Positions 18,101 to 32,846 of a stretch of 64,000 bases of DNA are shown in pieces. Each line of letters starts with the position of its first letter. The first letter of the stretch is position 1. Origin of the DNA: Waterburya sp. (GTDB taxonomy: Bacteria > Cyanobacteriota > Cyanobacteriia > Cyanobacteriales > Xenococcaceae); assembly GCA_965217895.1 (NCBI GenBank), contig CBDCJV010000002.1, positions 2,944,001 through 3,008,000 on the forward strand, given 5' to 3'. Under the pieces are notes generated by a model that saw only the letters and a list, made by a program, of their open reading frames with translations, made no database searches and was not told the DNA's origin. Both the position numbers and the translations under genes were made by a program.

Positions 18101-19735
18101 ATGAAATTCTCTGGAAAGATGAGCCATATATTACTGGGAACAGTAGGCTTGAGTGCTGCTTTAGGTGCTTTTAACCTACTACAGCCACAAATTACCCAGG
18201 CTGCTATTGCTCAAATAGCTCAAGTTCTTTCTCCAGAAGAAGTTAACCTGCGTGCTAAACAAGTTACTGTACGCATAGACGGGGCTAATACTGGCTCTGG
18301 TGCAATCGTTGACTATTCAAACAAAGTTTACACTGTGCTGACCAACTGGCACGTGATGAAAAATCCAGGAGATTATGTCGTCCAAACCATAGATGGTAGA
18401 CAACATCAGGTAGATCCCGCTTCGATTAAGGAATTACCAGGATTAGATTTAGCAATATTGAAGTTCAACAGCAATGAAAACTATCAGGTAGCTGAAACTG
18501 GTAATTCGTCAGACTTAAACGAAGGACAAAGTATTTATTTTGCTGGCTATCCTGGAGAATTACGCACAGAAGACAATCGTTACTATCGGTTCTTTACAGC
18601 TAACCTGGTGGGCATATTACCAAAATCGACTGATAATGGCTATTCTCTAATTTATAGTGGAGAAGCCTTTCCTGGGATGAGTGGAGGTCCTGTTTATAAT
18701 CAAGAAGGATATATGATTGGAGTTCATGGAGAGGCAAATATCAATGCCATATCTGGAGGCACTTCCAACTATGGCATTCCAATTAATAGCTATAAAAGTG
18801 CGATCGCCAAATTAAATAATCCAACGCCATCAACTCCTGCCGCCAATAATACAGCCAGTCAGCCAGAATCTAAAACCCCTAAGCCAGCCAATAATCAGCC
18901 AGAAACTCAAGATAATTCTGGCGAAATTTCTTCTGTTCCTACTTTTACCCCAGATCGAGCCAACACCCCTACCCCTAAAACTCCAGAAATAGAAAAACAA
19001 CCGAAACAACCAGAAGAATCAGCTAAACCTGAGCCACAACCATCAAAAGCAGAGAATGAATCAACACAAGCCACAAATTCTCAACCCGCTCCAGCAGCAT
19101 CAGAAGCTACAAACACACCTGCTACCTCACCTGTTTCTTTAGTCTCTCCCAGAACTGGCATTGACTATACTAAACTGCGAGATTTACTAAAGGAAAAAAA
19201 ATGGTCAGAAGCAGATATACATACCTACCAACTCGTAGAGCAAATTATTAAAACCGCTAAACAGGAAAATAAACACGTTTTTATTGAATTAAAAGCCATT
19301 GCTCAGTTTTCTTGTCCCGATATTAGAACTATAGACAACCTCTGGGAAAAATACAGCGACCAAAAATTCGGCTTTAGTTCCCAGCAGAAAATTTGGCAAA
19401 GCGTCAATCAAAAAGGCGATTATTCCACTGAAACCTGGCGCAAGTTTGCCACAAAAGTGGGCTGGAAAAAAGGTGATGTAATCAACGGTAGTGGCTATCT
19501 ACTATACGATGAGCTTAATTTTGATCCTGCAAAAGCACCTCAAGGTCAACTGCCTTGGTGGTTTGCTCTACCAGATGAAGAACAAAAGGTAATCAAGCAA
19601 TTATTTGCTAGCTGCAACTTTAATCCTAGCGTTGAAGAGTTAAAGGCAGAAGCTGAAAGAGATAACCCTAAAAAGTCTCCTGAGAATGCCTCTAGCAATC
19701 AACCTAATATTAATAAAGCCCCTAAATCTTTTTAA
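18101..19735 (+). CDS. Exported trypsin-like serine protease with Pro-rich linker and C-terminal GUN4 domain
   Basis: Signal-like N-terminus; triad motifs TNWHV, DLAIL and GMSGGP; GUN4 motifs DYTKLRDLL..KKW.EAD and IDNLW..YS..KFGFS.Q. Confidence 0.85.
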   Translation: MKFSGKMSHILLGTVGLSAALGAFNLLQPQITQAAIAQIAQVLSPEEVNLRAKQVTVRIDGANTGSGAIVDYSNKVYTVLTNWHVMKNPGDYVVQTIDGRQHQVDPASIKELPGLDLAILKFNSNENYQVAETGNSSDLNEGQSIYFAGYPGELRTEDNRYYRFFTANLVGILPKSTDNGYSLIYSGEAFPGMSGGPVYNQEGYMIGVHGEANINAISGGTSNYGIPINSYKSAIAKLNNPTPSTPAANNTASQPESKTPKPANNQPETQDNSGEISSVPTFTPDRANTPTPKTPEIEKQPKQPEESAKPEPQPSKAENESTQATNSQPAPAASEATNTPATSPVSLVSPRTGIDYTKLRDLLKEKKWSEADIHTYQLVEQIIKTAKQENKHVFIELKAIAQFSCPDIRTIDNLWEKYSDQKFGFSSQQKIWQSVNQKGDYSTETWRKFATKVGWKKGDVINGSGYLLYDELNFDPAKAPQGQLPWWFALPDEEQKVIKQLFASCNFNPSVEELKAEAERDNPKKSPENASSNQPNINKAPKSF

Positions 19736-19869
19736 CATTGAGCATTGAACAATTATCAATAAACAATGCAAGACACAAAGAATTACCATCAAAAGTGTCT
19801 GAAAAAAAAGCTAATAGCTGCAAATAATAACACCAAAGGCTTCATACGGAAAATTAGCAACGTTTAAAA

Positions 19870-20295
19870 ATGAAACACCATCAAACAGCCTTAAAAATAA
19901 AAACTACAGGAAAATCACTCCATAAAATTACTCGTCAAGTCGAACAAGCAGTAGAAAAATCTGGCGTTGCTACAGGCTTGTGTACTATATTTGTGCGTCA
20001 TACTTCTGCATCTTTATTGATCCAAGAAAATGCCGATCCTGATGTTTTAGTCGATCTAGAAAACTTCTTTGCTCAATTAGTTCCTGAAGACGCGACGCGA
20101 TATAATCATAGTGCCGAAGGAATGGATGATATGCCTGCTCATATTCGCTCTGCTTTAACCCATACTTCAGAACATATTCCTATTTCTAGAGCGCGATTAG
20201 CTTTAGGAACTTGGCAGGGTATTTATCTATGGGAACACCGTCAACGGGGCAATCAAAGAGAAGTAATTGTTCACGTCAGTGGAGATGAACATTAA
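19870..20295 (+). CDS. yjbQ: YjbQ/UPF0047 family protein
   Basis: HTSASL.IQENADPDV, AHIRS and LGTWQGI. Confidence 0.9.
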   Translation: MKHHQTALKIKTTGKSLHKITRQVEQAVEKSGVATGLCTIFVRHTSASLLIQENADPDVLVDLENFFAQLVPEDATRYNHSAEGMDDMPAHIRSALTHTSEHIPISRARLALGTWQGIYLWEHRQRGNQREVIVHVSGDEH

Positions 20296-20452
20296 AATCA
20301 ACAATCGAATAGTGTTACTAGGCAGTTTTGGTAAGCGATCGCCATTTTGAAGAACAAAACTTTTTAAGCTACTTAAACTATCTCCTAACTGTTTTTAAGA
20401 GGTCGCATTAACAACAGTTAGGACAAGTTGAGGCAACTTTAAAACTATCAAT

Positions 20453-20845
20453 TTATTTGCCTTGTATTAAGCCACTCAATTCATTTTCTACAGCTTCCAT
20501 ATATCCAGAATTTTCTAAAGCAGCAGGAGCTAGTTTTCCTGAATCAATTCCAGCCTGCACAAGATCTTTCGCCGTCACCTCTTTGTCTTGATACTCTTGA
20601 AGCAAAGTCCCAAAACCAGAGATTCCCCGATCTTTAAATTTGCCTTGGTAAGCCTGAGATACCAAAGCAGAAGGGCTAGTTTTTTCTTCTGTCATGTTCT
20701 GTTTGTCATTTGCCAATTCCAAACTACTTTCTTTAATAGAAGCTGTTTTGGCAAACACGGGTGAGTTATTTACCAGAGGCAAAACGATTGCAATAGACAA
20801 AGCACTGATACCTGCAATTATTTGATTTTTTGTTGAACGTTTCAT
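20453..20845 (-). CDS. Small secreted cyanobacterial hypothetical protein
   Basis: Signal peptide (..SPVFA); core LVSQAYQG.F..GI, TAKDLVQA.I..G.L and Y..AVE..L. Confidence 0.8.
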   Translation of the reverse strand: MKRSTKNQIIAGISALSIAIVLPLVNNSPVFAKTASIKESSLELANDKQNMTEEKTSPSALVSQAYQGKFKDRGISGFGTLLQEYQDKEVTAKDLVQAGIDSGKLAPAALENSGYMEAVENELSGLIQGK

Positions 20846-20917
20846 AGTTATTAACTCTCTTGAATAAAGCTAAGAGAAATTCCTTTATTGATTACTAATG
20901 TAACTATAGAATTATAT

Positions 20918-20935
20918 TGTCAAGAACATAGCAAG
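20918..20935 (-). promoter_or_regulatory. Shared regulatory motif, copy 1
   Basis: Minus strand CTTGCTATGTTCTTGACA, about 70 nt upstream of the start at 20845. Confidence 0.7.
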
Positions 20936-21076
20936 ATTAAGAGAAAGCAAATGTTTATTTGCAATTTATTATTCATGTAAAAAAAGTTCGATCAAAGCAA
21001 TTCTGATATAAAACGAACTTTTTCTTTATATCTTAGTTTTTCTTTTTGAATAGCTTAAATTTTAAAAATCAATCAT

Positions 21077-21101
21077 AAAACTTGCAAAGTTCTTGACATT
21101 T
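21077..21101 (+). promoter_or_regulatory. Shared regulatory motif, copy 2
   Basis: AAAACTTGCAAAGTTCTTGACATTT, identical to 27096-27120; 65 nt upstream of 21167. Confidence 0.8.
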
Positions 21102-21166
21102 ATCTTTTAAAGTTCACTCGTCAATGAACTTCATACAAGAACTTTGATAAAAATATTTAATCTTTA

Positions 21167-22369
21167 ATGAATAATCAAGCTTTTACTCTTACTCCTGTGC
21201 CAACTGGTTCATTGAAGATTTTGGCTACATCACTATGTACTGAGATTAATTCCTCTACTCCTCTGAAATTTTCGCTGATTATTCCTTCCTATAACGAAGG
21301 TGATAACATCCAACAAATAATTATTATTCTTTGTCAACTTCTCGAACAAGCTATTCCTGGAAAATATGAGTTAATTGTAGTTGACGACAACAGCCCTGAT
21401 AAAACTTGGAAACTAGCTCAAGAATTGACACCCAAATATCCTCAGTTGAGGGTGATGCGCCGAGACAAGGAAAAAGGGCTGGCAACAGCAGTAATTAGAG
21501 GTTGGCAGGCAGCACGAGGAGAGATTTTGGGAGTAATTGACGGGGATTTGCAGCATCCTCCTGAAGTTTTACTAAAGCTATGGCAAGAAATTGAAAGGGG
21601 TGCTGATTTAGCGGTTGCTAGTCGTAATATCGAAGATGGTGGAATTAGCGATTGGAGTATTATTCGTCGTTTTCTGTCCCGTGGTGCGCAGATGGCAGGA
21701 TTAATTATGCTTCCAGAAGTAGTTAGTCGTCTTAGCGACCCGATGAGTGGCTATTTTCTGGTGCGTCGAGATGTTTTAGTCGGTCAGACCCTCAAACCAT
21801 TAGGATACAAAATATTAATTGAAGTTTTAGCCAGAGGTCGGATACGCTGGATTGGCGAAGTAGGCTATATCTTTCAAGAAAGAGAGAATGGAGCAAGTAA
21901 AGTTACCGCAAAACAGTATGCAGAATATATTCAGCATCTACTGCGCCTGCGCTTAGATTTGTGGCAGATGAAACGCTTTATTCGGTTTGGAATCTCAGGC
22001 TTTAGCGGTGTGTTTATTAATATGGGTGTTCTCTATTTGCTGCGAGAATTTGTTGGTTTAGGGTTGACTCGTAGTGCGATTTTAGCAGCAGAAGTTGCGG
22101 TCGCTAATAATTTTGTCTGGAATGATTTATGGACTTTTCAAGATATTTCCCGCAATCAAAGAGGTAATCGTCAAAGATTTCAACGATTTCTGAAATTTAA
22201 TCTAATTTGCTTATCTGGGCTAGTTTTAAATGTTCTAATTCTGAATCTACTTTACAATTTTTTGGGCATCAGTGAATATATTGCCAACCTTATGGCGATC
22301 GCCATTGTGACTTTCTGGAATTTTTGGTTAAACCTTAAACTAAGCTGGCGTGTTACGGAAATTGATTAG
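21167..22369 (+). CDS. GT2 polyprenol-phosphate glycosyltransferase (Dpm1-like) fused to a GtrA-like domain
   Basis: SLIIPSYNE, VDDNSPD, DGDLQHPP and DPMSGY; C-terminal four-TM GtrA-like part (RFGISG, NNFVWN..WTF, WNFWLN). Confidence 0.9.
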   Translation: MNNQAFTLTPVPTGSLKILATSLCTEINSSTPLKFSLIIPSYNEGDNIQQIIIILCQLLEQAIPGKYELIVVDDNSPDKTWKLAQELTPKYPQLRVMRRDKEKGLATAVIRGWQAARGEILGVIDGDLQHPPEVLLKLWQEIERGADLAVASRNIEDGGISDWSIIRRFLSRGAQMAGLIMLPEVVSRLSDPMSGYFLVRRDVLVGQTLKPLGYKILIEVLARGRIRWIGEVGYIFQERENGASKVTAKQYAEYIQHLLRLRLDLWQMKRFIRFGISGFSGVFINMGVLYLLREFVGLGLTRSAILAAEVAVANNFVWNDLWTFQDISRNQRGNRQRFQRFLKFNLICLSGLVLNVLILNLLYNFLGISEYIANLMAIAIVTFWNFWLNLKLSWRVTEID

Positions 22370-22390
22370 GAGAGGAATTGACTAAAAATC

Positions 22391-24004
22391 ATGGTTCATA
22401 TTCAGTCAGGTTTTACTAAAACTGTTTTTAAGACAGGCATCGTGTTTGTTTTTCTTAGTTTAAGATTGTTGTTAGACAGCAACATGGATGGTCATGTTTG
22501 GAATGAAGTGGATGTTTTACCTTTAGCCAAGCAGTTTGTCGCTCCTGACTGGATAGCTAACGACTGGTATCTCAACCTAGAAACCAACTATAGATATTTG
22601 TTTCAAATTATTTTTGGCTGGTTAATAGTTCACTTTGGGTTTTTGGCAACTTCTATTATCGGACGTTTGATTTGTTATGCTCTGGTATCGTGGGGAATAG
22701 TACTGCTAGGTCAAAAACTAGGCTTGAGCTTGTCCTATCTGTTGTTAGCAACGGTGGTAATTACTTATCAAGGAAATCTCCAGGGGACAATTGCAGGGGA
22801 ATGGTTCGTTGGGGGACTTGAAGCCAAAGCTTTAGCCTATGGACTAATTCTGATTGCTCTGCCTTTGATGTTGAGCAAAAAATATATTTTAATGACCTTG
22901 TTATTAGGATTGGCTACTTCTTTTCATGTCTTAGTCGGTGGTTGGGCTTTTATCACTACATTGGGTTGGTTTTGTTTTCGTCCTCAACGTTTGTTCAAAC
23001 TCGGCAAGAATGTCTGGTTATTGTTAGTAATTTATTTAGCGGCTAGTGCCTTTGCCATTCCCACAGCTTTTCAGCAGCTTTTTGCCCCCTCCATCTCAGC
23101 AAATATTTCTCCCTCTTTTATTTATGTTTTTCTCAGACTTCCCCACCACTTAAACCCCTTTGCCTGGCATCCACTATTGTGGCTAAGATTAACAATCTAT
23201 CTTTCGATCTGGGCATTGTGTATGGTGTCTTTGCAAAAAAATGCCGATCTCCAAGGTTGGAAATCAGAAGATTATGCCCGTTTTGAACTGGCAGAATTCA
23301 CCCTAATTAGTTTGATTCCCTTTGTTACGGGAGTGGCGATCGCTTTTTTCGACCATCAAGGACAGTGGCTACAATATTATCCCTTTCGCTTCGGGGACAT
23401 GATGTTGCCTTTAACTACCTTTTTGCTCCTTGCCTGTAGTCTGCAAGCAAAATTCTCTTTTAAGAACAATAGGTTTCGGCTAATCTTGATAGCTTTATTA
23501 AGCTGTATTTTGTTGACTCAAGGAGCAATTTTTAACCAACGGGCGATCGCTTATGCAGATTTTCCCACAAGCGAACAAGATGTAGATTCTCAATTTAAGT
23601 TAATGAGTACTTGGATTGACGAGCATATTGATCGCGAGGCGATCGTTATTTCCCACCCCTGGAAACTAACTAGCTTTAGCTGGATGAGCGAACGAGCAAC
23701 TATTGTTAAGTTGAAAATGTTTCCTCAAACTAAAAAATCAATTGTGGAGTATTATGAGCGTTTGAATGACCTTAGTGCTGGGGCTGTAGCCAAAATATAT
23801 TTTGGCGATCGCAAAATAGATCAAGGGAATATGGTAAAAGCTATTAGTGCAGGTTTTTCTCACCTCAATACTTCTCAGGTGAAGCAATTGATGACTAAGT
23901 ATCAATCTAATTATTTCTTAACTGATGAGTCCCATCATTTAGATTTGCCCGTTGTTCATATCCAGGCACCTTATATTCTTTATGGACTAACTGAGGACTT
24001 TTGA
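22391..24004 (+). CDS. Multi-TM membrane protein, DUF6798-like (paralog A)
   Basis: About 10-12 hydrophobic segments; NEVDVLPLA, DWYLN, GGLEAKA, RLPHHLNP and YYPFRF motifs shared with 25229-26866. Confidence 0.8.
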   Translation: MVHIQSGFTKTVFKTGIVFVFLSLRLLLDSNMDGHVWNEVDVLPLAKQFVAPDWIANDWYLNLETNYRYLFQIIFGWLIVHFGFLATSIIGRLICYALVSWGIVLLGQKLGLSLSYLLLATVVITYQGNLQGTIAGEWFVGGLEAKALAYGLILIALPLMLSKKYILMTLLLGLATSFHVLVGGWAFITTLGWFCFRPQRLFKLGKNVWLLLVIYLAASAFAIPTAFQQLFAPSISANISPSFIYVFLRLPHHLNPFAWHPLLWLRLTIYLSIWALCMVSLQKNADLQGWKSEDYARFELAEFTLISLIPFVTGVAIAFFDHQGQWLQYYPFRFGDMMLPLTTFLLLACSLQAKFSFKNNRFRLILIALLSCILLTQGAIFNQRAIAYADFPTSEQDVDSQFKLMSTWIDEHIDREAIVISHPWKLTSFSWMSERATIVKLKMFPQTKKSIVEYYERLNDLSAGAVAKIYFGDRKIDQGNMVKAISAGFSHLNTSQVKQLMTKYQSNYFLTDESHHLDLPVVHIQAPYILYGLTEDF

Positions 24005-24018
24005 GTTATGCCAGAAAT

Positions 24019-25179
24019 CTAACCATTTGCTTGGGCTAATAATCCCCCTGCTGCCCCTAAACAAAGCAAATTTGGCAGCCAAGCAGCCAACAAAGGAGAA
24101 ACAGCTCCAGAAGTCCCTAAAGATTGGCAGATAAAAGACAAGAAATAATAAATAAAAATTAGTCCAATACAAATACCGAAACTGGTTGCTTTACCCGAAT
24201 TTTGGGGTTTAACGCCCAAAGCAGCCCCAAACAGGGCAAATACTAAACAAGCAAAAGGCACCGCAATTTTTGATTGGATACTAACTTGCAGAAGGCGAAT
24301 TTCTTTTTCATCAGCACTGTCCTTAATTATTTTTAAATACTCTCGCGCTTCAAAAATATTCATTTCATTGGTTTCCTTGCTTTTTTTGGTAATATCTAAA
24401 GCCGAGCGTGGTAATTCTAGTTTTTGGTGCTGAAAACGGATTACGTTGTTGTAGCTGCCATTTTCCCCCACCAAATAAATCGTGCCATTATTGAAATCCC
24501 AAATATTTTCCAAGACATTCCACTGAGCTGATTCTGCCGTGACAATTTGGCTTAGGGGTCTACTGGTGCGATCTAATACCGTTATGTTTTTCATTTGCTG
24601 ACCGTCAAATTCTTCAGCATAAAACAAACGGCTTAAAACCTTTCTAGTATCACCATTTTCTAGCTGAATATCTTCATACTCAGGAAACAAGATATTCTCC
24701 GTTTTAAAATTAGGTTTAGTTTCTCCCAATGCTTCATTCAGAGTTACCGACGCTTGATAGCTGCTAGCAGGAGCAATAAAATTGTTAAACATAAAGGTGA
24801 TGGCAACTACACACAAACTAAAGGCGATCGCTGGTTTAATTAGAGCATAAACACTAACTCCAATACTACGTAAGGCAATCAGTTCGCTATCACTAGAAAG
24901 ACGGCTATAACTCATCAAGGTCGCCAATAAGATCGACATAGGAAAAGCAAGCACAATAAATTCAGGCATTTTCAGAACTAGTACTTCGAGAGCAACCCCC
25001 CAAAACAATCCTGAATCCGTGACTTGGCGAATTAGTTCAAATACTGCGCCAATTGACAAGCCCAGAGCGGTAAATATCCCCATCCCAAATAAAAATGGTA
25101 AGATTAGCTCCTTGATGATGTAGAGATTTAGCACTGATAAGCTTAATTCTCTAAATGGCTTTAATACACCGATTTTCAT
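24019..25179 (-). CDS. LptF/LptG-family (Ycf84-like) LPS export permease
   Basis: YIIKELI.PF, SRLSSDSELIALRSIGVS, periplasmic beta domain and AAWLPN. Confidence 0.9.
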   Translation of the reverse strand: MKIGVLKPFRELSLSVLNLYIIKELILPFLFGMGIFTALGLSIGAVFELIRQVTDSGLFWGVALEVLVLKMPEFIVLAFPMSILLATLMSYSRLSSDSELIALRSIGVSVYALIKPAIAFSLCVVAITFMFNNFIAPASSYQASVTLNEALGETKPNFKTENILFPEYEDIQLENGDTRKVLSRLFYAEEFDGQQMKNITVLDRTSRPLSQIVTAESAQWNVLENIWDFNNGTIYLVGENGSYNNVIRFQHQKLELPRSALDITKKSKETNEMNIFEAREYLKIIKDSADEKEIRLLQVSIQSKIAVPFACLVFALFGAALGVKPQNSGKATSFGICIGLIFIYYFLSFICQSLGTSGAVSPLLAAWLPNLLCLGAAGGLLAQANG

Positions 25180-25228
25180 AGATAAATTTAGACAATTATG
25201 TTTTGAATTAGCTGGCTAGTAATTAATC

Positions 25229-26866
25229 TCATTTAGATTTGACGTAGAGGATATAAGGAGATTGACGATGAGCAGTCTCCAAGTCTAAATGATGGGCAAC
25301 GTTAGTTAAAAAATAATTGGCTTTATATTTGGTCATCAAAGTTTCTACTTGAGCCACAGTCAAATGAGCGTAACCGTTTGCTAATACTTTTCTCGTTTTT
25401 TGTTTGCTTAGGCTTCCACTCTTCAGATAGGCTGATAATACACTATTGCCACTAAGATCATCCCAACGCTGGTATTGTTCCAATATTCGAGCTTTAGTTT
25501 GCGCGAAAAGTTTAAATTTGGCGATTGTAGGACGTTCGGTTAACCAGCTAAAATTATCTAGCTCAACGGGATTGGAGATAATTACGGCATTTTTAGCAGT
25601 ATTGAGTCGAATCCAATTACTCATCTCTTTCCACTCAGGAGATACATTTTGCTCTTGAGCGGGAAATTGCCCTAGAGCTAAAAAATTTTGATAAAAAGGT
25701 ATAATTTGTAAGCTCAAAGCCCAACTTATAAGTACAGTGCAGATCGTCAACTTTAGCTTGTGTTGATGTGCTAAAAGAAAATGCTCTAAAATACAGGCAA
25801 ACAGTAAACAACCAGTTAACGGCAGTATTACATCTGCAAAACGAAAAGGATAATACTGCAACCATTGCCCTTGAGAGTCAAAAAAAGCAATTACTATACC
25901 TAGAAAAAAGGGAATCAAACTGACCAATGCTAATTCCCCCAGTTCCTGACGAGCATAATCAGCTTGCTCTTGGTATTCTCCTTTATCAGCTAGCTTCTTG
26001 AGCAAGATCATACTAACCAGCAGCACTAGCAAATACAGTATAGGTTTAATCCACTGTTCACTAGACCAAGTAAAAGGATTAAGGTGATGGGATAGTCGCA
26101 GATAAACATATATATAGGATGGAGAAGGAATATCATTATTAATATTAATTGGCTTGGCAGCAGCTATTTGCTGCCAGACGGCGGGAATCGCAAAAATACT
26201 GGCAGAAATATATGCTAAAAGCAATTGAGGAATAGCTTGACTAATCTGACCCAATCTTTTGGAATAATGAAGACAAAACCAGCCTGCAATCGTCATAAAA
26301 GCCCATCCACCTACTAAAACCTGAAAAGAAGTGGCAACACCTAATAACAAAGCTGTAAATAGGTAACGTTTAGCTAATAAAAAAGCGATCGCCACCAAAA
26401 CAAAACCATAGGCAAATGCTTTAGCTTCTAGTCCTCCAACTATCCATTCCCCAGCGATTACCCCTTGTTCATAACTTTTATTAAGATAAGTAAATAAAAC
26501 AATGGCTAGCAATAAAAAAGGCAGGCTTAAACGTAGTTGTTTACCAATCAATACTAATCCTATAGCAACCAGTACGTAACAAAGCGATCGACCGATAATT
26601 GAAGCAGCTAAAAAACCCCAGTTAACAATCAACCAGCCTACTAAAGTTTGAAATAACAATCTATAGCCAGCAGCTTGATTAAGATACCAATCTCCAGGTA
26701 TCCAAGATGGATCAAAATATTGCCGAGCAAGAGGTAATACGTCAACCTCATTCAAGCCTGAGTTTCCCATATTTTTATACAAAAGCAATCTCAAACTAAG
26801 GAATACCGTAACTGCGACTATTTGCCAAAAAGTATTGAGTAGGGGTGAGGCATTTATTTTATACAT
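25229..26866 (-). CDS. Multi-TM membrane protein, DUF6798-like (paralog B)
   Basis: Collinear motifs with 22391-24004 along the whole length. Confidence 0.8.
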   Translation of the reverse strand: MYKINASPLLNTFWQIVAVTVFLSLRLLLYKNMGNSGLNEVDVLPLARQYFDPSWIPGDWYLNQAAGYRLLFQTLVGWLIVNWGFLAASIIGRSLCYVLVAIGLVLIGKQLRLSLPFLLLAIVLFTYLNKSYEQGVIAGEWIVGGLEAKAFAYGFVLVAIAFLLAKRYLFTALLLGVATSFQVLVGGWAFMTIAGWFCLHYSKRLGQISQAIPQLLLAYISASIFAIPAVWQQIAAAKPININNDIPSPSYIYVYLRLSHHLNPFTWSSEQWIKPILYLLVLLVSMILLKKLADKGEYQEQADYARQELGELALVSLIPFFLGIVIAFFDSQGQWLQYYPFRFADVILPLTGCLLFACILEHFLLAHQHKLKLTICTVLISWALSLQIIPFYQNFLALGQFPAQEQNVSPEWKEMSNWIRLNTAKNAVIISNPVELDNFSWLTERPTIAKFKLFAQTKARILEQYQRWDDLSGNSVLSAYLKSGSLSKQKTRKVLANGYAHLTVAQVETLMTKYKANYFLTNVAHHLDLETAHRQSPYILYVKSK

Positions 26867-26922
26867 ACATTGTTTGTTCTCAATTCAAGCCAAAAATATC
26901 CAGCCTCACCATAGATATAAAG

Positions 26923-26940
26923 CGTCAAGAACTTTATAAG
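26923..26940 (-). promoter_or_regulatory. Shared regulatory motif, copy 3
   Basis: Minus strand CTTATAAAGTTCTTGACG, about 57 nt upstream of the start at 26866. Confidence 0.7.
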
Positions 26941-27095
26941 ATGCTTTCCTACTTTTGTGAATGTTCATATTTGCTAACGCAGACTGAATTGTGAGCTAGT
27001 CAAAAAATAGATTTGATGACGGTAATCCTTTACTGCAAAACACTTTTCTTGTTCAATAGTTTTGATGTGCAGTCGAAATATTAGCGATTGATGAC

Positions 27096-27120
27096 AAAAC
27101 TTGCAAAGTTCTTGACATTT
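27096..27120 (+). promoter_or_regulatory. Shared regulatory motif, copy 4
   Basis: 25-bp exact match to 21077-21101; 46 nt upstream of 27167. Confidence 0.8.
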
Positions 27121-27166
27121 GTTTTTTAGATTGGAATCGCCAACTTAAATAAACGAGGCAAAACAA

Positions 27167-28039
27167 ATGGCAAACCAACTATTGAATGTGAATGACCAAG
27201 AAACACAAGATGACTTAATGAACATGGGAGCTACTCAAGATAGCCAGAATAACGACCAAGAAACACAAGATGACATTGGTGCAGATGGCGAGATCCAAGA
27301 CGACTATCAAACAGTCGGAATTAAGGACTTAAGTGCAGATATGATCCAGAGTGCAACTGGAACTGTTTCCGCAGTTTCTGACAATGGATTTGTCCTGACG
27401 GACTCTACGGGTCAGATTCAAGTAGATACTCCAGGGAAATTGAATCTTGCGGATGGAGAACAAGTTACTGTCATTGGCGAATATTCTAATTTAGGAGGTC
27501 AGAATGTCTTTGATGGATTAGATATTACTAAAGCAGATGGAACAGTCGCTCTCAATCCTTTTGGAACTACTGATACTGGAGGGCAAAACGACATTCTCGA
27601 TGGTAATGCACAAGCAAATATGCTTGAGGGCGATTCTGGTAATGATTATATTACAGGGCGAGGTGGCAATGACAACCTTGTTGGTAATGATGGTACAGAC
27701 ATCTTATTAGGAGGAGCAGGTCAAGATATCCTGACTGGCGGCAGTGGAGCAGATCAGTTCAGCTATCAATCACTTGCAGATGGTGGCGATTCTATTAGCG
27801 ACTTTAACGCTACCGAGGATGTTATTAATGTAGGTGAAATTTTTGGCTCTACAAATTATAGTAGCCAAAACCCTTTTGCGGAATACGTGCAGCTAACACA
27901 AGTCGGTTCTAGCACTCAGGTCGGTATCGATCCTGATGGTAGTGCAGGAACAAATCCGTTCGAGGTTTTGACTACTTTAGAAAATACCACCGCTAGCAGT
28001 TTGAGTCAAGATAACTTTAATTTTAATCCTCTGGGTTAA
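27167..28039 (+). CDS. Acidic protein with an OB-fold-like domain, RTX calcium-binding repeats and a type I secretion C-terminal target domain
   Basis: GTV..V....FVL.DSTGQI.VD (BOF/YgiW-like), GG.GND nonapeptide repeats, D.ISDF and a C-terminal IDPDG...LTTL motif. Confidence 0.75.
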   Translation: MANQLLNVNDQETQDDLMNMGATQDSQNNDQETQDDIGADGEIQDDYQTVGIKDLSADMIQSATGTVSAVSDNGFVLTDSTGQIQVDTPGKLNLADGEQVTVIGEYSNLGGQNVFDGLDITKADGTVALNPFGTTDTGGQNDILDGNAQANMLEGDSGNDYITGRGGNDNLVGNDGTDILLGGAGQDILTGGSGADQFSYQSLADGGDSISDFNATEDVINVGEIFGSTNYSSQNPFAEYVQLTQVGSSTQVGIDPDGSAGTNPFEVLTTLENTTASSLSQDNFNFNPLG

Positions 28040-28059
28040 GAAAAAAGTTTTATAACTAA

Positions 28060-28092
28060 CAGAACTTTCTTTATAAAATAAAGAAAGTTCTG
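28060..28092. terminator. Bidirectional terminator hairpin
   Basis: CAGAACTTTCTTTAT-AAA-ATAAAGAAAGTTCTG between convergent genes. Confidence 0.75.
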
Positions 28093-28125
28093 ATTAAACT
28101 AAACTCACGTTACCTTCAACTCGAT

Positions 28126-28368
28126 CTACAGATTTTCAGTGCTATCGGGGGAAATTTCTTTTACTTTTCTATTTGTTTTAGCAACCTGCTGATCGGTGAT
28201 TAGATCATCTAGTTCGTTGATGTCTACACCAATTTGCTGACAGGCTTGATGTAAGTTGGCGATAAATAAATCGGTGTTTTGCTCGTATCCAGAGTTTTTG
28301 GCAGCGATCGCAATTCCTTGCTTGGCATTTGCCTTGGCACAGTCTATTAGCTCTATTCCTTGAAGCAT
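28126..28368 (-). CDS. Conserved hypothetical protein
   Basis: 80-aa ORF with L.G.ELIDCAKANA start and EISPDS end, typical of a small cyanobacterial family. Confidence 0.7.
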   Translation of the reverse strand: MLQGIELIDCAKANAKQGIAIAAKNSGYEQNTDLFIANLHQACQQIGVDINELDDLITDQQVAKTNRKVKEISPDSTENL

Positions 28369-28445
28369 AATTTTTTATAGTAAAATGTTTTTACATCTTA
28401 AGCTGGCATATTAAATTGCCAATTACATCTGTCTAAAGATCTATC

Positions 28446-28847
28446 TTAATTGGTTACTGTACTTAAATCTTGAGCTACTCGAACTCGATCGCTGGCTTCG
28501 TTTTTCTCAATGTGCTTTTCTAATATGTCTAGGTTACGCATATTTGCTTTAAAGTAGGCATCAAAAATATCGCCAGCAATAGGAACAGAACCAATTGCTG
28601 TTTCTATCGCCACATTTTTGAACATCTTTAGTATTTCGCCTCGCTCTAGTCCAAAACGAGCCGCTAAATAAATCATGTAGGCGGAGATACCAGCCGAAAT
28701 CAAATCTCCTCCTCCTGGAATTAAACCCAAAATAGGATCTAAACCAAAACGAATTTTTGTACCTGGAATACCGATAGCTGTATCTAAAAGTTTGGCTATT
28801 TTACGAATCTTTTTTAGGTTTTTAAGCTGCTGAATTTTATCCATCAA
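28446..28847 (-). CDS. DUF4112-family protein
   Basis: LLDTAIGIPGT.IRFGLDPILGLIPGGGD and GDIFD..FKAN.RN. Confidence 0.9.
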   Translation of the reverse strand: MMDKIQQLKNLKKIRKIAKLLDTAIGIPGTKIRFGLDPILGLIPGGGDLISAGISAYMIYLAARFGLERGEILKMFKNVAIETAIGSVPIAGDIFDAYFKANMRNLDILEKHIEKNEASDRVRVAQDLSTVTN

Positions 28848-28927
28848 TTGCAGTACACTAGAATGTAATTCTTTTATCTTATAGCGATCGCCTTTGAGTT
28901 TCTTCTCTCTGTAGATATAAATTTTAT

Positions 28928-29111
28928 GGCGTTGCTGATTTGAAGTATGAAACCGAAAAGTAATCTGTTCGTAGCTATTAGCTCTTAGAGGCTTTGGAAA
29001 GCCTCGCCTCTCCGAAGGAGAGTCGGCAAGCTCCAGCTTGCAGCTCTTAGCTTTTTAATTGATTTGCTCAACGAGTAAAAATTATGAATCATACCTGGAT
29101 TCAGCAACGCC
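28928..29111. mobile_element. MITE (184 bp) with imperfect 23-bp TIRs and an 8-bp target-site duplication
   Basis: Left end GGCGTTGCTGATTTGAAGTATGA, right end TCATACCTGGATTCAGCAACGCC; AATTTTAT flanks both sides (28920-28927 and 29112-29119). Confidence 0.85.
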
Positions 29112-29123
29112 AATTTTATCTAT

Positions 29124-30206
29124 CTAAGTCCAATACAAAATTTCCCCATCAGGAAAATTAGTGACAATTTGCGTTTGAATAAACTCTTTAAGTTCTGTCA
29201 TAGTATCGCGGTCATAGACATATTTAACACCACCAAACTTATTACGCTTTTGAATGCGCTCGGCTGCTTCTAAATCTAGTTTGCTGTTAGGATACCATGT
29301 CTGCAAAACCTCTTTTGATTTAGGGGTAAAGCGATGAGTAATTAGTTCAAAAGTAAGATCGCATTCAAAATCCAAAGCCTGACGAATTTTAGCAAACAAG
29401 TTCTCATAATGCTGCTGCCAATCGGCAACGATCATAATCGGCGCAACGACAACGCCTACGGGATAACCGCTCAAAGCTAGCTTTCGTAGTCCCTGTAGCC
29501 TTTCTTCTACGGTAGCCGTACCTCCCTCCATAAAACGACTTACAGGATCGGCATTGACGCTAACACGACAGCGAGTATGCCCATTATGAGGTAAATCTAA
29601 GAGCCGATCGACATGATCGAACTTGGTTACCCAACGTAGATAAGCAGATTTCCTCGTGCCGAAATAGCGAATACATTCAGCTAAACTACCAGTCAAGTGT
29701 TCTATGCCTAAAGGATCTGTATAACAGCTAACTTCATAGGTTGTATCTTCCTCTTCTTTTTCGTAATTGCTTAAATTCGCGAGAATTTGGGGCAAATTTC
29801 CATAAGCCTTAACGACAGGAACACCTGACAAACTTCCTGCCAGATAACAATACTGACAGTGAGCAGGACAACCTTGTGCCAAATGAAATTGCCAATCAGC
29901 CGATGGCGGAATCGGAGTAAGTTTAAGTTGGCTGGGTGGTGCGTTAACTATAGCTAAAGTATTTTTGGCGATCGCATAAGTCTCTTTTTCAGTCTTACCA
30001 CGCAATCCCGTGATTCTGTTTTGAGATAGCTTTTTGACAGGAATACCCAAAGCTTCAACCCTGGCAATAATTTGTTGTCCCCAAGGTTGAGAATCGGCAG
30101 CAGGAGTTACTAATACTTGCTTTGGCAGCCAAAGTTTAGTCTTAGAAGAAACAGTACCGTTAGATTGCGTAGAATCGATTGGTGTTGAAATAGCAGGTTT
30201 GTTCAT
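29124..30206 (-). CDS. splB: Spore photoproduct lyase family radical SAM protein
   Basis: GCPAHCQYCYL (CxxxCxxC), SCYTDPL.IEHLTG, VTKF and ITHRFT. Confidence 0.88.
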   Translation of the reverse strand: MNKPAISTPIDSTQSNGTVSSKTKLWLPKQVLVTPAADSQPWGQQIIARVEALGIPVKKLSQNRITGLRGKTEKETYAIAKNTLAIVNAPPSQLKLTPIPPSADWQFHLAQGCPAHCQYCYLAGSLSGVPVVKAYGNLPQILANLSNYEKEEEDTTYEVSCYTDPLGIEHLTGSLAECIRYFGTRKSAYLRWVTKFDHVDRLLDLPHNGHTRCRVSVNADPVSRFMEGGTATVEERLQGLRKLALSGYPVGVVVAPIMIVADWQQHYENLFAKIRQALDFECDLTFELITHRFTPKSKEVLQTWYPNSKLDLEAAERIQKRNKFGGVKYVYDRDTMTELKEFIQTQIVTNFPDGEILYWT

Positions 30207-30636: not shown

Positions 30637-31728
30637 CTATTTAATAAATTGCTTTTTGATAAAAGGTGAAGTCATTGCTGTCAAAAGACTGCCGTAATCG
30701 AGGTTAAAATTTACCCCTATTCCGACTTTGAGATCGGAGTTTATACTATTAATAACCGTGTGATCGCTACTAGATCCCAGTATTTCGAGATCTCGATCTG
30801 GACTTAAACCAGAGATCAGAGTGTCCTGCTTGCCTAAAGCAATAATCGCTCTTTGGTGTGTGCCACGATCTTTGAATACGGGGATATTACCAAAAGCATC
30901 TTGTCCAATTTCTCCAAAAGGTACAGAAGGCTTTATTTTCGATTCAATAACCTCGGCAATCAATTTAAAAGCATTGGTATGTAATTTCGGAATGGCTTGG
31001 CGGTTGACAGTTCCGCAGCCTAGAAGAATTGATTCTCCGATCCGCAGGTTATTAATTCGCCCAACCTGATTAGTGGATTTATACCATTCATAATTAGCGG
31101 AGTTTCCTCCAGAAATTAAAGCCAAATTAATTGAAAAATTTTTTTCTATGGCATCAGTTAATGCTGACAGTTGCTGCATTTTCTGATTGTCAGGCTTGAT
31201 GCCTCCATAGCAAGCCAAATTACAGCCGAGTCCAATAATTTTGAGATAAGGTAAGCAAAGAACTTTTTGAATGAAGAGGAAGATGTCATCAGGAAGTATT
31301 CCCTCTCGCAAGTCGCCCATTTCCACCATTAAAATTATCTGATGGATTTTATTTTGCAAAGAAGCATAATAGTTGAGCTTTTCCAGGGTAGCGATTTCTG
31401 TATTCAGGCTAATATCTACATCTTCAACAACTGATTCTGCTTGACTCAATGCCGTGCGGAGTAAGACAAACTGAGCCGATATTCTGGCATTTTTCATCCG
31501 CTGAATATTTTCTAAACGAGAGTCGGCAATAAACTTAACCCCGCCACGAATCATTGCTTCGGCAATCAACGGCTCTCCTAATACTGCCTTGGAAACTCCC
31601 ATCAAGGAAATACCTTGTTTTCCATAAAGTTCGCATAACATCTGAGCATTATGCTGTATGTCGGACAGGGTAATTTCGATTCTGGGCATAAACCCTTGCG
31701 TATTTTTGTGGCAACTTTTAACGTTCAC
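30637..31728 (-). CDS. PLP-dependent alanine/ornithine racemase family enzyme (fold type III)
   Basis: GVSKA (PLP lysine), ADSR.ENI, GDLREG, SGGNS, LRIGE and GSSSDH. Confidence 0.88.
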   Translation of the reverse strand: MNVKSCHKNTQGFMPRIEITLSDIQHNAQMLCELYGKQGISLMGVSKAVLGEPLIAEAMIRGGVKFIADSRLENIQRMKNARISAQFVLLRTALSQAESVVEDVDISLNTEIATLEKLNYYASLQNKIHQIILMVEMGDLREGILPDDIFLFIQKVLCLPYLKIIGLGCNLACYGGIKPDNQKMQQLSALTDAIEKNFSINLALISGGNSANYEWYKSTNQVGRINNLRIGESILLGCGTVNRQAIPKLHTNAFKLIAEVIESKIKPSVPFGEIGQDAFGNIPVFKDRGTHQRAIIALGKQDTLISGLSPDRDLEILGSSSDHTVINSINSDLKVGIGVNFNLDYGSLLTAMTSPFIKKQFIK

Positions 31729-32846
31729 CCCGTTGTTAATAAAGGACGTATCTGAGAATTTCTTTGGTTTTGTCGTCGGTTGAGAGTGGGAAAAAGCTTA
31801 CTCAAGGCAAGTATTAGTTTGTCACAGCCATAGGTTAAAACATCTGTTGTGGGTAACAAAAGCTGTTCTTCATAGCCTTGGATAGTCTTCTGGATTTCTG
31901 TTTCAGTCAAGTTTTCATGGCTTAAAGCGATCGCAATTACCTGAGATTGGGAAATTGCTTTAATCAACTGAATTTCACTAACAATATTTGGCATTGGTAA
32001 AAGGGGAAAATCGCAACGAAATTTCCTGCTAGGAGGATGTTGTAAAATAACTCCATCTGGCATACATCCTTTAAGAATACCGACAGAACTCATAAAGGCA
32101 GGATGGGATACGGCACTTTGCCCTTCGACTAGAATAATATCGGGATTCTCTTGTTCAAAGGCTCGAACAACAGCGTGTTCTATTTCGCCAATCACAAATT
32201 GAGACACCAGCGCATCGATGGATACGCCATATCTTGCTCCTTGCATCAAGCCAGTTTGACCTGTTGCCACCAGCACTGATTTAATTCCCAGATTGTTTAA
32301 GGCTTTATTTAATTCCACTGCGGTAGTCATTTTACCGCAGGCGCAATCAGTACCTAAAACCGCAATTACAGGAACGGTGACTTTAGCAATTTGACCAGTA
32401 AACACATGGAGATCTTTTAATTCGGGCGGTTTTCTAATATCTTGAATTTCGACTCCCCACCGATTAGCCGCTTCAATAAATTCAGTATCTTCAGAAAAGA
32501 ACTGATGAAGACCATTAATGATATCCATTCCTTCGCTCATTGCTTCCAAGATTAAGGCTCTTTCAGCAATAGCTATGGTCGCTTCTAAAGTAGCTTTGCC
32601 GTAAATGTAGCAGTCTGGAACATTTGCTAAGTTAGCTAAAGCTGAATCTAAGTTAGTAAAAATGGGAATATGGTTCTTTTTATTATCTAACTCTTCTCCT
32701 GCATCTTTACCAGCTAAGGAACTATCAATTACTCCCACAATATTATAAGTTTCGGAGTGTCGGACTAACCCTGCTGCGGTTTTGCCATCCATTAAGCCAA
32801 ATTGATTTTCACAGTAAACCAAAGCTGTTTTTTTATTAACTAACAT
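31725..32846 (-). CDS. DUF1611 (DgcN-like) protein with P-loop
   Basis: GKTA.GLVR, GTDCACGKMTT, TGQTG and VEGQ...HP. Confidence 0.88.
   Translation of the reverse strand: MLVNKKTALVYCENQFGLMDGKTAAGLVRHSETYNIVGVIDSSLAGKDAGEELDNKKNHIPIFTNLDSALANLANVPDCYIYGKATLEATIAIAERALILEAMSEGMDIINGLHQFFSEDTEFIEAANRWGVEIQDIRKPPELKDLHVFTGQIAKVTVPVIAVLGTDCACGKMTTAVELNKALNNLGIKSVLVATGQTGLMQGARYGVSIDALVSQFVIGEIEHAVVRAFEQENPDIILVEGQSAVSHPAFMSSVGILKGCMPDGVILQHPPSRKFRCDFPLLPMPNIVSEIQLIKAISQSQVIAIALSHENLTETEIQKTIQGYEEQLLLPTTDVLTYGCDKLILALSKLFPTLNRRQNQRNSQIRPLLTTG

Follow-up and report, generated by a model that had tools for sequence, protein, structure and literature searches.

Promoters controlled by PhoB carry the pho box, an 18-bp element with an 11-bp period located about 10 nt before the -10 hexamer, in place of a -35 hexamer. 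A repeat of the same period, TTAAG-N6-TTAAG, overlaps the -35 region of promoters activated by BqsR, as given in the available text of PMC4358008. For other OmpR-type systems, the accessible descriptions list GtrA, PAP2 and a hemolysin-type calcium-binding protein among the targets of ColR (PMC2689224) and place an ExxE motif beside the second membrane helix of the kinases ColS and RaxH (PMC4074579, PMC8306577). The mmf cassette (mmfA, B, C1, D, C2, R, S), reported from Tn6048, Cupriavidus metallidurans CH34, pMOL98 and pHB44, is induced by Pb and Zn, and its function is left unexplained in the available portions of its sources (PMC4914505, PMC12029693). Here, we analyze a window of 64,000 nt (C2:2944001-3008000) from the 5.29-Mb, HIP1-rich genome (G000) of the cyanobacterium Waterburya sp., in which a direct-repeat box precedes four transcription units of an envelope gene cluster. 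From genomic comparison, we consider it probable that this box is bound by an OmpR-type regulator (C2:4974332-4975027, minus strand), encoded together with its membrane kinase (C2:4973043-4974290, minus strand) 2 Mb away from the window, and that this regulator switches on ten promoters.

The conserved unit of the box is an 18-bp direct repeat, CTTGCAAAGTT-CTTGACA, with an 11-bp period. Re-reading of the sequence showed that the 25-mers at 21077-21101 and 27096-27120, which contain boxes B and D (Table 1), are identical letter for letter; a stretch of 8.2 kb with the same composition would contain ~2e-7 such pairs by chance. The two minus-strand variants (boxes A and C) were likewise as the first-pass annotation had described them, and all four main copies are in the sense orientation, ending 72, 68, 56 and 49 nt before the start codons at 20845, 21167, 26866 and 27167, respectively. 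Outside the boxes, the two divergent promoter regions show no significant similarity in their flanking DNA (z = 1.6, 0.5 and 0.9; 300 shuffles), which speaks against a segmental duplication as the origin of the copies. A weaker reverse copy proposed on the minus strand at 21134-21150 had to be discarded as a site, scoring at or below zero in both models built from other genomes and lacking a -10 hexamer.

A strict pattern of the box detects eight strong copies in the 5.29-Mb genome. A model combining box, spacer and -10 hexamer, derived from 33 sites in other genomes and applied to both strands, returns exactly ten sites at 31.8-50.9 bits, the recovery of the six remote ones being partly built in because the training set includes their orthologues; the GT2-GtrA, DUF6798 and RTX promoters of the window had no orthologue in that set. 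There were no matches between 16 and 31 bits, and the reversed model gave none at 16 bits. All ten sites are intergenic, in the sense orientation and 43-89 nt ahead of an open reading frame (ORF). A high-copy or mobile repeat is ruled out by the small number of sites, every one of them promoter-positioned; no Rfam match was found within positions 19500-29500 of the window. Of the regulon first proposed for the cluster, the four units stand, but the confinement to the cluster does not, as six further sites lie elsewhere in the genome. These precede the genes of two DUF347 proteins, one ArnT-like PMT_2 transferase and three small secreted proteins, and a PAP2 phosphatase gene follows one of the latter, being thus second after the box.

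Of the 18 OmpR-type DNA-binding domains encoded in the genome, none was seen less than 9 kb from any of the four remote site clusters that were inspected. The boxes of relatives gather around a single regulator/kinase pair, whose orthologue in this genome is the candidate pair. The regulator is composed of a receiver and a winged-helix domain, the kinase contains a HisKA domain, and both have intact reading frames with full domains. An OmpR/PhoB-type regulator encoded outside the window, as initially suggested, is still the best reading, now with a specific candidate. Among 41 genomes of the family, the regulator is present at no less than 79% identity in 7 and the kinase at 56% or more over the sensor half in 8. 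The eight close-kinase genomes contain 43 matches to the box with its -10 hexamer (1-9 each), compared with 22 in the other 33 and 23 for the reversed control in all 41; the seven genomes with at least two strict sites are all among these eight. In loci L035, L036 and L232, boxes lie on the flanks of the pair and ahead of its operon, which in G004 (L035) and G357 (L232) has the order metallophosphoesterase-regulator-kinase; in seven loci, the regulator is the first gene after the box. The site at C2:2244957 has orthologues in G028 and G035 that are situated ~130 nt behind the kinase gene.

To the 80 best of 140 kinase-homologue loci, many of them from closely related Nostoc so that counts overstate independence, a relaxed box pattern containing no -10 term was applied; it gave 179 intergenic matches versus 22 with the reversed pattern and occurred in 76 of the 80 loci, while a position weight matrix scan gave 102 matches versus 4 reversed. 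The strict strain-type pattern has only four single matches in 300 other genomes across the phylum, and the wider family of boxes uses variant first half-sites. For 76 of the 80 loci, in which the regulator is included (66-94% identity), changes of the first half-site accompany those of its recognition helix and wing: helix GEGSIKTHITNLR..IENIYG pairs with the box variant CTTGACT, helix GEETVKTH[IM]TNLR with a CTTTCC[AG]-type box, and helix GEGTIKTHITNLR[QSF] mostly with a CTTGCAA box, although among related genomes of shared descent this co-variation is a supporting pattern and not a statistical test.

A -10-like hexamer, TAnnnT, lies exactly 9 nt past the box in 148 of the 164 unique full-length intergenic contexts of the 80 loci, and the same fixed gap is present in 10/10 sites of this genome. 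The core had been described as CTTG-N7-CTTG including TTGACA; its 11-bp period is confirmed, but TTGACA is found in only three of the four window copies. Similarly, the box does overlap the -35 position, as had been supposed, but its TTGACA does not serve as a housekeeping -35 hexamer, being separated from the -10-like hexamer by 9 nt and not by 16-18 nt, and a consensus scan of the window listed no sigma-70 promoter using it in this way. Because the hexamer is fixed 9 nt past the box, TTGACA represents the second half-site, and the box itself takes up the room of a -35 hexamer, as it does in pho-box promoters and in those activated by BqsR. At the predicted -35 position, the sequence departs from the consensus, as would fit promoters that depend on an activator. 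The constant bipartite arrangement and the presence of TTGACA could also be expected of an alternative sigma factor promoter (extended -35 plus -10); we regard this as highly improbable, since neither the 9 nt between TTGACA and the -10 hexamer nor the 21 nt between the first half-site and that hexamer fits a spacing of 16-18 nt, the element has the form of an 11-bp direct repeat, and what travels with it is a pair of response regulator and kinase genes.

Besides the relatedness of the loci and the shared descent mentioned above, several observations weigh against the assignment of the box to this pair or against a conserved cluster. The expected box upstream of orthologues in relatives was found at 3 of 20 DUF6798 homologue loci (five of the 20 being cut by contig ends or fragmentary) but at 0 of 22 GT2-GtrA homologue loci, and both genes are absent, at the thresholds used, from the six other close-regulator genomes. 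An OmpR-type pair with the same box upstream, as anticipated in the first-pass annotation, exists in relatives, but the operon of the pair in this genome has no box in the ten-site scan. Three genomes without the close kinase and regulator (G001, G010 and G017) keep a 26-28-bit box with -10 hexamer ~50 nt before DUF6798, and in G034, at least three boxes and the kinase are kept, with the regulator missing upstream of the kinase. Genome comparison thus indicates that in some relatives the boxes outlast this regulator or are read without it.

The boxes kept before DUF6798 in the absence of a close pair would suit a real activator site read by another regulator, either an OmpR paralogue (RppA, or the sister pairs at C2:1381815 and C2:5167315) or an RpaB-like global one. 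The G-box of CcaR, CTTTCCGATTTCTTTACGATTT in the available text of PMC8256508, points in the same direction: it shares 11-12 of 17 positions with the box, and CcaR belongs to the same broad cyanobacterial OmpR clade, suggesting that related cyanobacterial regulators read similar sequences. We nevertheless consider another reader quite unlikely, because paralogues of 50-57% identity occur in all 41 family genomes, yet multi-site genomes are found only among the close-kinase ones, and the three nearest paralogues of the regulator in this genome carry other recognition helices. Individual candidates found no support either. The kinase has no photosensory domain and the targets are not phycobilisome genes, unlike those of CcaR; HLR1 of RpaB, given as two (G/T)TTACA(T/A)(T/A) units with a 2-nt gap in the accessible text of PMC6525291, has a 10-bp period unlike the 11-bp box; and the Hrr1 H box, AGGAATTTACM in the available part of PMC13079394, is a different sequence. 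RppA/RppB (NF041734/NF041735) are the best NCBIfam matches of the pair, at 243 and 271 bits below the cut-offs of 250 and 400 bits, and the targets are not Ni/Cu efflux genes. A sister regulator subfamily (64-68% identity, helix ending RTHITNLR) is seen in G029, G020, G028, G038, G039, G024 and G349; its boxes are of a separate variant that ends in CTTGAT[CGA] and often lies ahead of the operon of the subfamily itself, and unrelated genes are inserted between its regulator and kinase.

The pair is located on plasmids in at least 12 cyanobacteria. Together with G001, G034, G027 and G357, where boxes are relics or pairs are half lost, and with the missing autoregulatory box in this genome, this would be compatible with the boxes being relics of mobile cassette pieces, with the four units no longer co-induced, or with the regulator acting as a repressor. 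Such a scenario appears improbable, as all ten sites keep a near-consensus box plus -10 hexamer ahead of unrelated intact genes, the regulator and kinase are undamaged, and the predicted -35 position would suit activator-dependent promoters. We infer, from sequence comparison, direct binding by the candidate regulator, activation instead of repression, and co-expression of the units. Partly lost pairs take the form of a regulator without an adjacent kinase in G027, where a second complete pair is present, and of a kinase in three pieces in G357; a further box in G001 lies ahead of a transposase-like ORF (L051).

Across 96 loci (80 kinase and 16 family loci, three duplicates dropped), 210 box-following genes were counted; as these loci had also served to train the model, the target counts are descriptive only: 73 belong to the PepSY cluster and 66 to DUF347, and the others include metallophosphoesterases, the regulator itself, DUF2808, ArnT-like proteins, DUF2127, Omp85, GT21, LCM methyltransferase, PAP2 and BacA. 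Two small secreted targets of this genome have no Pfam PepSY match and are joined to the PepSY cluster by BLAST linkage only. The box and the core regulon are conserved across cyanobacteria, and membership of the window cluster is a strain-level trait. Between the two DUF347 genes of this genome, C2:491120-492349 encodes a 409-aa protein with no Pfam or NCBIfam match, and its homologues recur beside box-led genes in relatives G027, G028, G035 and G017. A box also precedes a sigma-70-family sigma factor gene in two kinase loci (e.g., L121, 5647-6642), and locus L035 of relative G004 contains six boxes in 8.3 kb near a cation-efflux protein, a heavy-metal-type P-type ATPase, ArsR and an RppA/RppB pair.

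The features of the window cluster are listed in Table 1. The GT2-GtrA fusion is predicted to be a polyprenyl-phosphate-sugar synthase/flippase. An AlphaFold2 model of the DUF6798 protein at 25229..26866, computed from 120 homologues, has a pLDDT of 92.5, and 24 of 24 Foldseek matches at E<=0.001 are GT-C enzymes (DPY19, PglB/STT3/AglB, AftA, ArnT, ALG9), with TM scores of 0.40-0.52 and 10-13% identity; residues N39-E40 after the first helix are invariant. According to this model, DUF6798 proteins have a GT-C fold, with transfer from a lipid-linked donor as a predicted activity; for the second copy (22391..24004), GT-C transferase identity is inferred from its paralogue. The LptF/LptG-family permease is one of two matches in this genome, compared with one match in each of 14/14 relatives searched, and the copy at C2:1582176 is the one that keeps the relatives' gene neighbourhood. 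A 49-nt gap with no terminator-like site makes co-transcription of the extra permease behind DUF6798 likely. In the 290-aa OB-fold/RTX protein, no N-terminal signal peptide was seen; its best Foldseek match is Escherichia coli YgiW (1nnx; E = 1.1e-3, one run), the rest are generic OB folds, and a Pfam BOF match is sub-threshold (E = 0.035), so that the predicted structure resembles YgiW weakly. With no full-length match to the RTX gene among 38 genomes of the genus, and with boxes at few or none of the DUF6798 and GT2-GtrA loci of relatives, the cluster looks recently assembled and apparently recruited into the regulon in this strain only. The six genes, first regarded as otherwise unrelated, instead form a predicted kit for lipid-carrier glycosylation and outer-membrane export.

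Table 1. Boxes, -10-like hexamers and genes of the window cluster (positions in the 64,000-nt window)
Feature	Position	Strand	Description
Box A	20918..20935	-	variant first half; serves 130-aa secreted-protein gene; 31.8 bits, box+(-10) model
-10-like hexamer TATAGT	20903..20908	-	9 nt past box A
Box B	21081..21098	+	consensus; serves GT2-GtrA / DUF6798 unit; 45.3 bits
-10-like hexamer TAAAGT	21108..21113	+	9 nt past box B
Box C	26923..26940	-	variant; serves DUF6798 / lptF-G unit; 34.3 bits
-10-like hexamer TATGGT	26908..26913	-	9 nt past box C
Box D	27100..27117	+	consensus; serves OB-fold/RTX gene; 45.1 bits
-10-like hexamer TAGATT	27127..27132	+	9 nt past box D
130-aa predicted secreted protein	20453..20845	-	no Pfam family; box-led homologues in kinase loci L035, L083, L106
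GT2 glycosyltransferase fused to GtrA/DPMS membrane domain	21167..22369	+	Pfam PF00535 + PF04138
DUF6798 polytopic membrane protein	22391..24004	+	50% identical to second copy
Extra LptF/LptG-family permease	24019..25179	-	76-77% identical to housekeeping copy C2:1582176-1583333
DUF6798 polytopic membrane protein	25229..26866	-	predicted GT-C fold
290-aa acidic OB-fold/RTX protein	27167..28039	+	OB-fold ~residues 58-130 + RTX calcium-binding repeats

Within the RTX gene, a 24-nt direct repeat (27191-27214 and 27251-27274, 60-nt spacing) encodes a duplicated acidic peptide at the protein N-terminus, and a perfect, terminator-like 15-bp inverted repeat (28060-28092) is located just 3' of the gene. 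Further along the window, 30637-32846 holds a two-gene unit that by eye reads like an alanine-racemase-domain protein and a DUF1611-type P-loop protein.

In the proposed mechanism, the phosphorylated regulator would sit over the -35 position and turn on the ten promoters, four of them in the window cluster. The GT2-GtrA protein could load and flip a polyprenyl-phosphate sugar, which the two DUF6798 proteins with a GT-C fold would move onto an acceptor at the outer surface; given the extra LptF/G in the cluster, lipopolysaccharide (LPS)/lipid A is the likeliest acceptor, with the small secreted protein and the OB-fold/RTX protein possibly acting alongside. The kinase has two membrane helices and an ArlS-like sensor domain, and a search for solved structures resembling this domain found none. 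An ExxE motif (E146, E149) immediately precedes the second helix; 99 of 114 homologues have it there (six of 120 were excluded because of their length), and it is absent at that position in three aligned paralogues of this genome. The signal is the part of the scheme of which we are least sure: the chances are evenly balanced that it is an excess of a divalent or transition metal (Zn, Fe, Pb), which may be sensed through ExxE beside the second helix, as in ColS; more tentatively, it may be lipid-carrier or envelope stress caused by metal. The available text of PMC13524251 reports that the FEARE (ExxE) motif of Pseudomonas aeruginosa ColS is not the main metal determinant, which counts against this view and weakens the signal assignment.

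Through this analysis, a cyanobacterial two-component pair that carries no name in databases, or is wrongly labelled there as manganese-sensing or WalK, gains a box, a promoter geometry and a list of targets. Searches of the open literature found no description of either box or pair, although subscription papers, regulon databases or supplements might hold a description; the mechanism class is textbook, and the box is apparently undescribed in print. The regulon offers a handle on three families with no known function, DUF347, DUF6798 and the small secreted proteins, and the window illustrates a regulon gaining members, with four near-consensus promoters before genes whose orthologues mostly lack boxes. 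It is conceivable, although we hold it to be unlikely, that cyanobacteria own a widespread metal-sensing envelope switch, a ColRS/mmf counterpart with a different regulator, into which this strain has wired a complete inducible outer-membrane re-glycosylation kit, with a dedicated second LptF/G that adjusts the LPS transporter for export of the modified lipid.

Three-component transmembrane glycosylation of the GtrA/GtrB/GtrC type consists of a GT2 enzyme, GtrA and a GT-C transferase. The window cluster likewise combines GT2, GtrA and a GT-C-fold transferase, but here GT2 and GtrA are fused, two DUF6798 transferases are present, and an extra LptF/G is attached. Unlike in the PhoB system, the box has a different sequence and no phosphate-uptake genes are among the targets; a separate PhoB/PhoR-like pair, read by eye, lies next to phoU at C2:2156382. 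BqsRS/CarSR of P. aeruginosa, as far as the available text of PMC4358008 describes it, is similar in its ExxE-type sensor, autoregulated operon and arn targets, and differs in the half-site and in the position of RExxE, which is found early in the periplasmic domain of BqsS (residues 44-48) and not beside the second helix.

The available descriptions of mmf show a PepSY protein, an undecaprenyl-PP phosphatase-type enzyme, two DUF347 proteins and a secreted protein beside an OmpR-type pair. This target set recurs in the pan-regulon, and in this genome it is represented by the two box-led DUF347 genes, whose products are 55% and 43% identical to MmfC1 and MmfC2, respectively, and by the PAP2 gene second after its box. 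MmfR and MmfS were rejected as orthologues of the pair (34% and 29% identity), MmfR ranking seventh among the regulators of this genome, and the cyanobacterial box was not found before mmfA of pHB44 (best score <4 bits). Moreover, mmf is one operon in a Tn6048-type transposon, whereas the regulon described here has ten dispersed promoters with the pair in trans. Since the mmf target set is known to be metal-induced yet lacks an explanation, its counterpart in cyanobacteria, preceded by a legible box, opens the question to experiment.

ColRS of Pseudomonas and RaxRH of Xanthomonas share with the candidate system an OmpR-type pair, the position of ExxE in the kinase, and GtrA, PAP2, ArnT-type and calcium-binding targets, as far as the available text describes these. 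Against the ColR consensus as given there, YYNASNNYTTTTTSAC, the four window boxes match 9 of 12 specified positions, and 87 of 116 boxes of other cyanobacteria match 10-12 of 12 (range 8-12), all as raw counts with no null model. In contrast to ColRS, eptA, dgkA and pagL were not seen among the box-led genes, and PepSY and DUF347 dominate. What the window adds is a probable trans-acting regulator for ten scattered promoters, a recruited kit for glycosylation that includes a spare LptF/G, and a ColRS-like box and ExxE motif.

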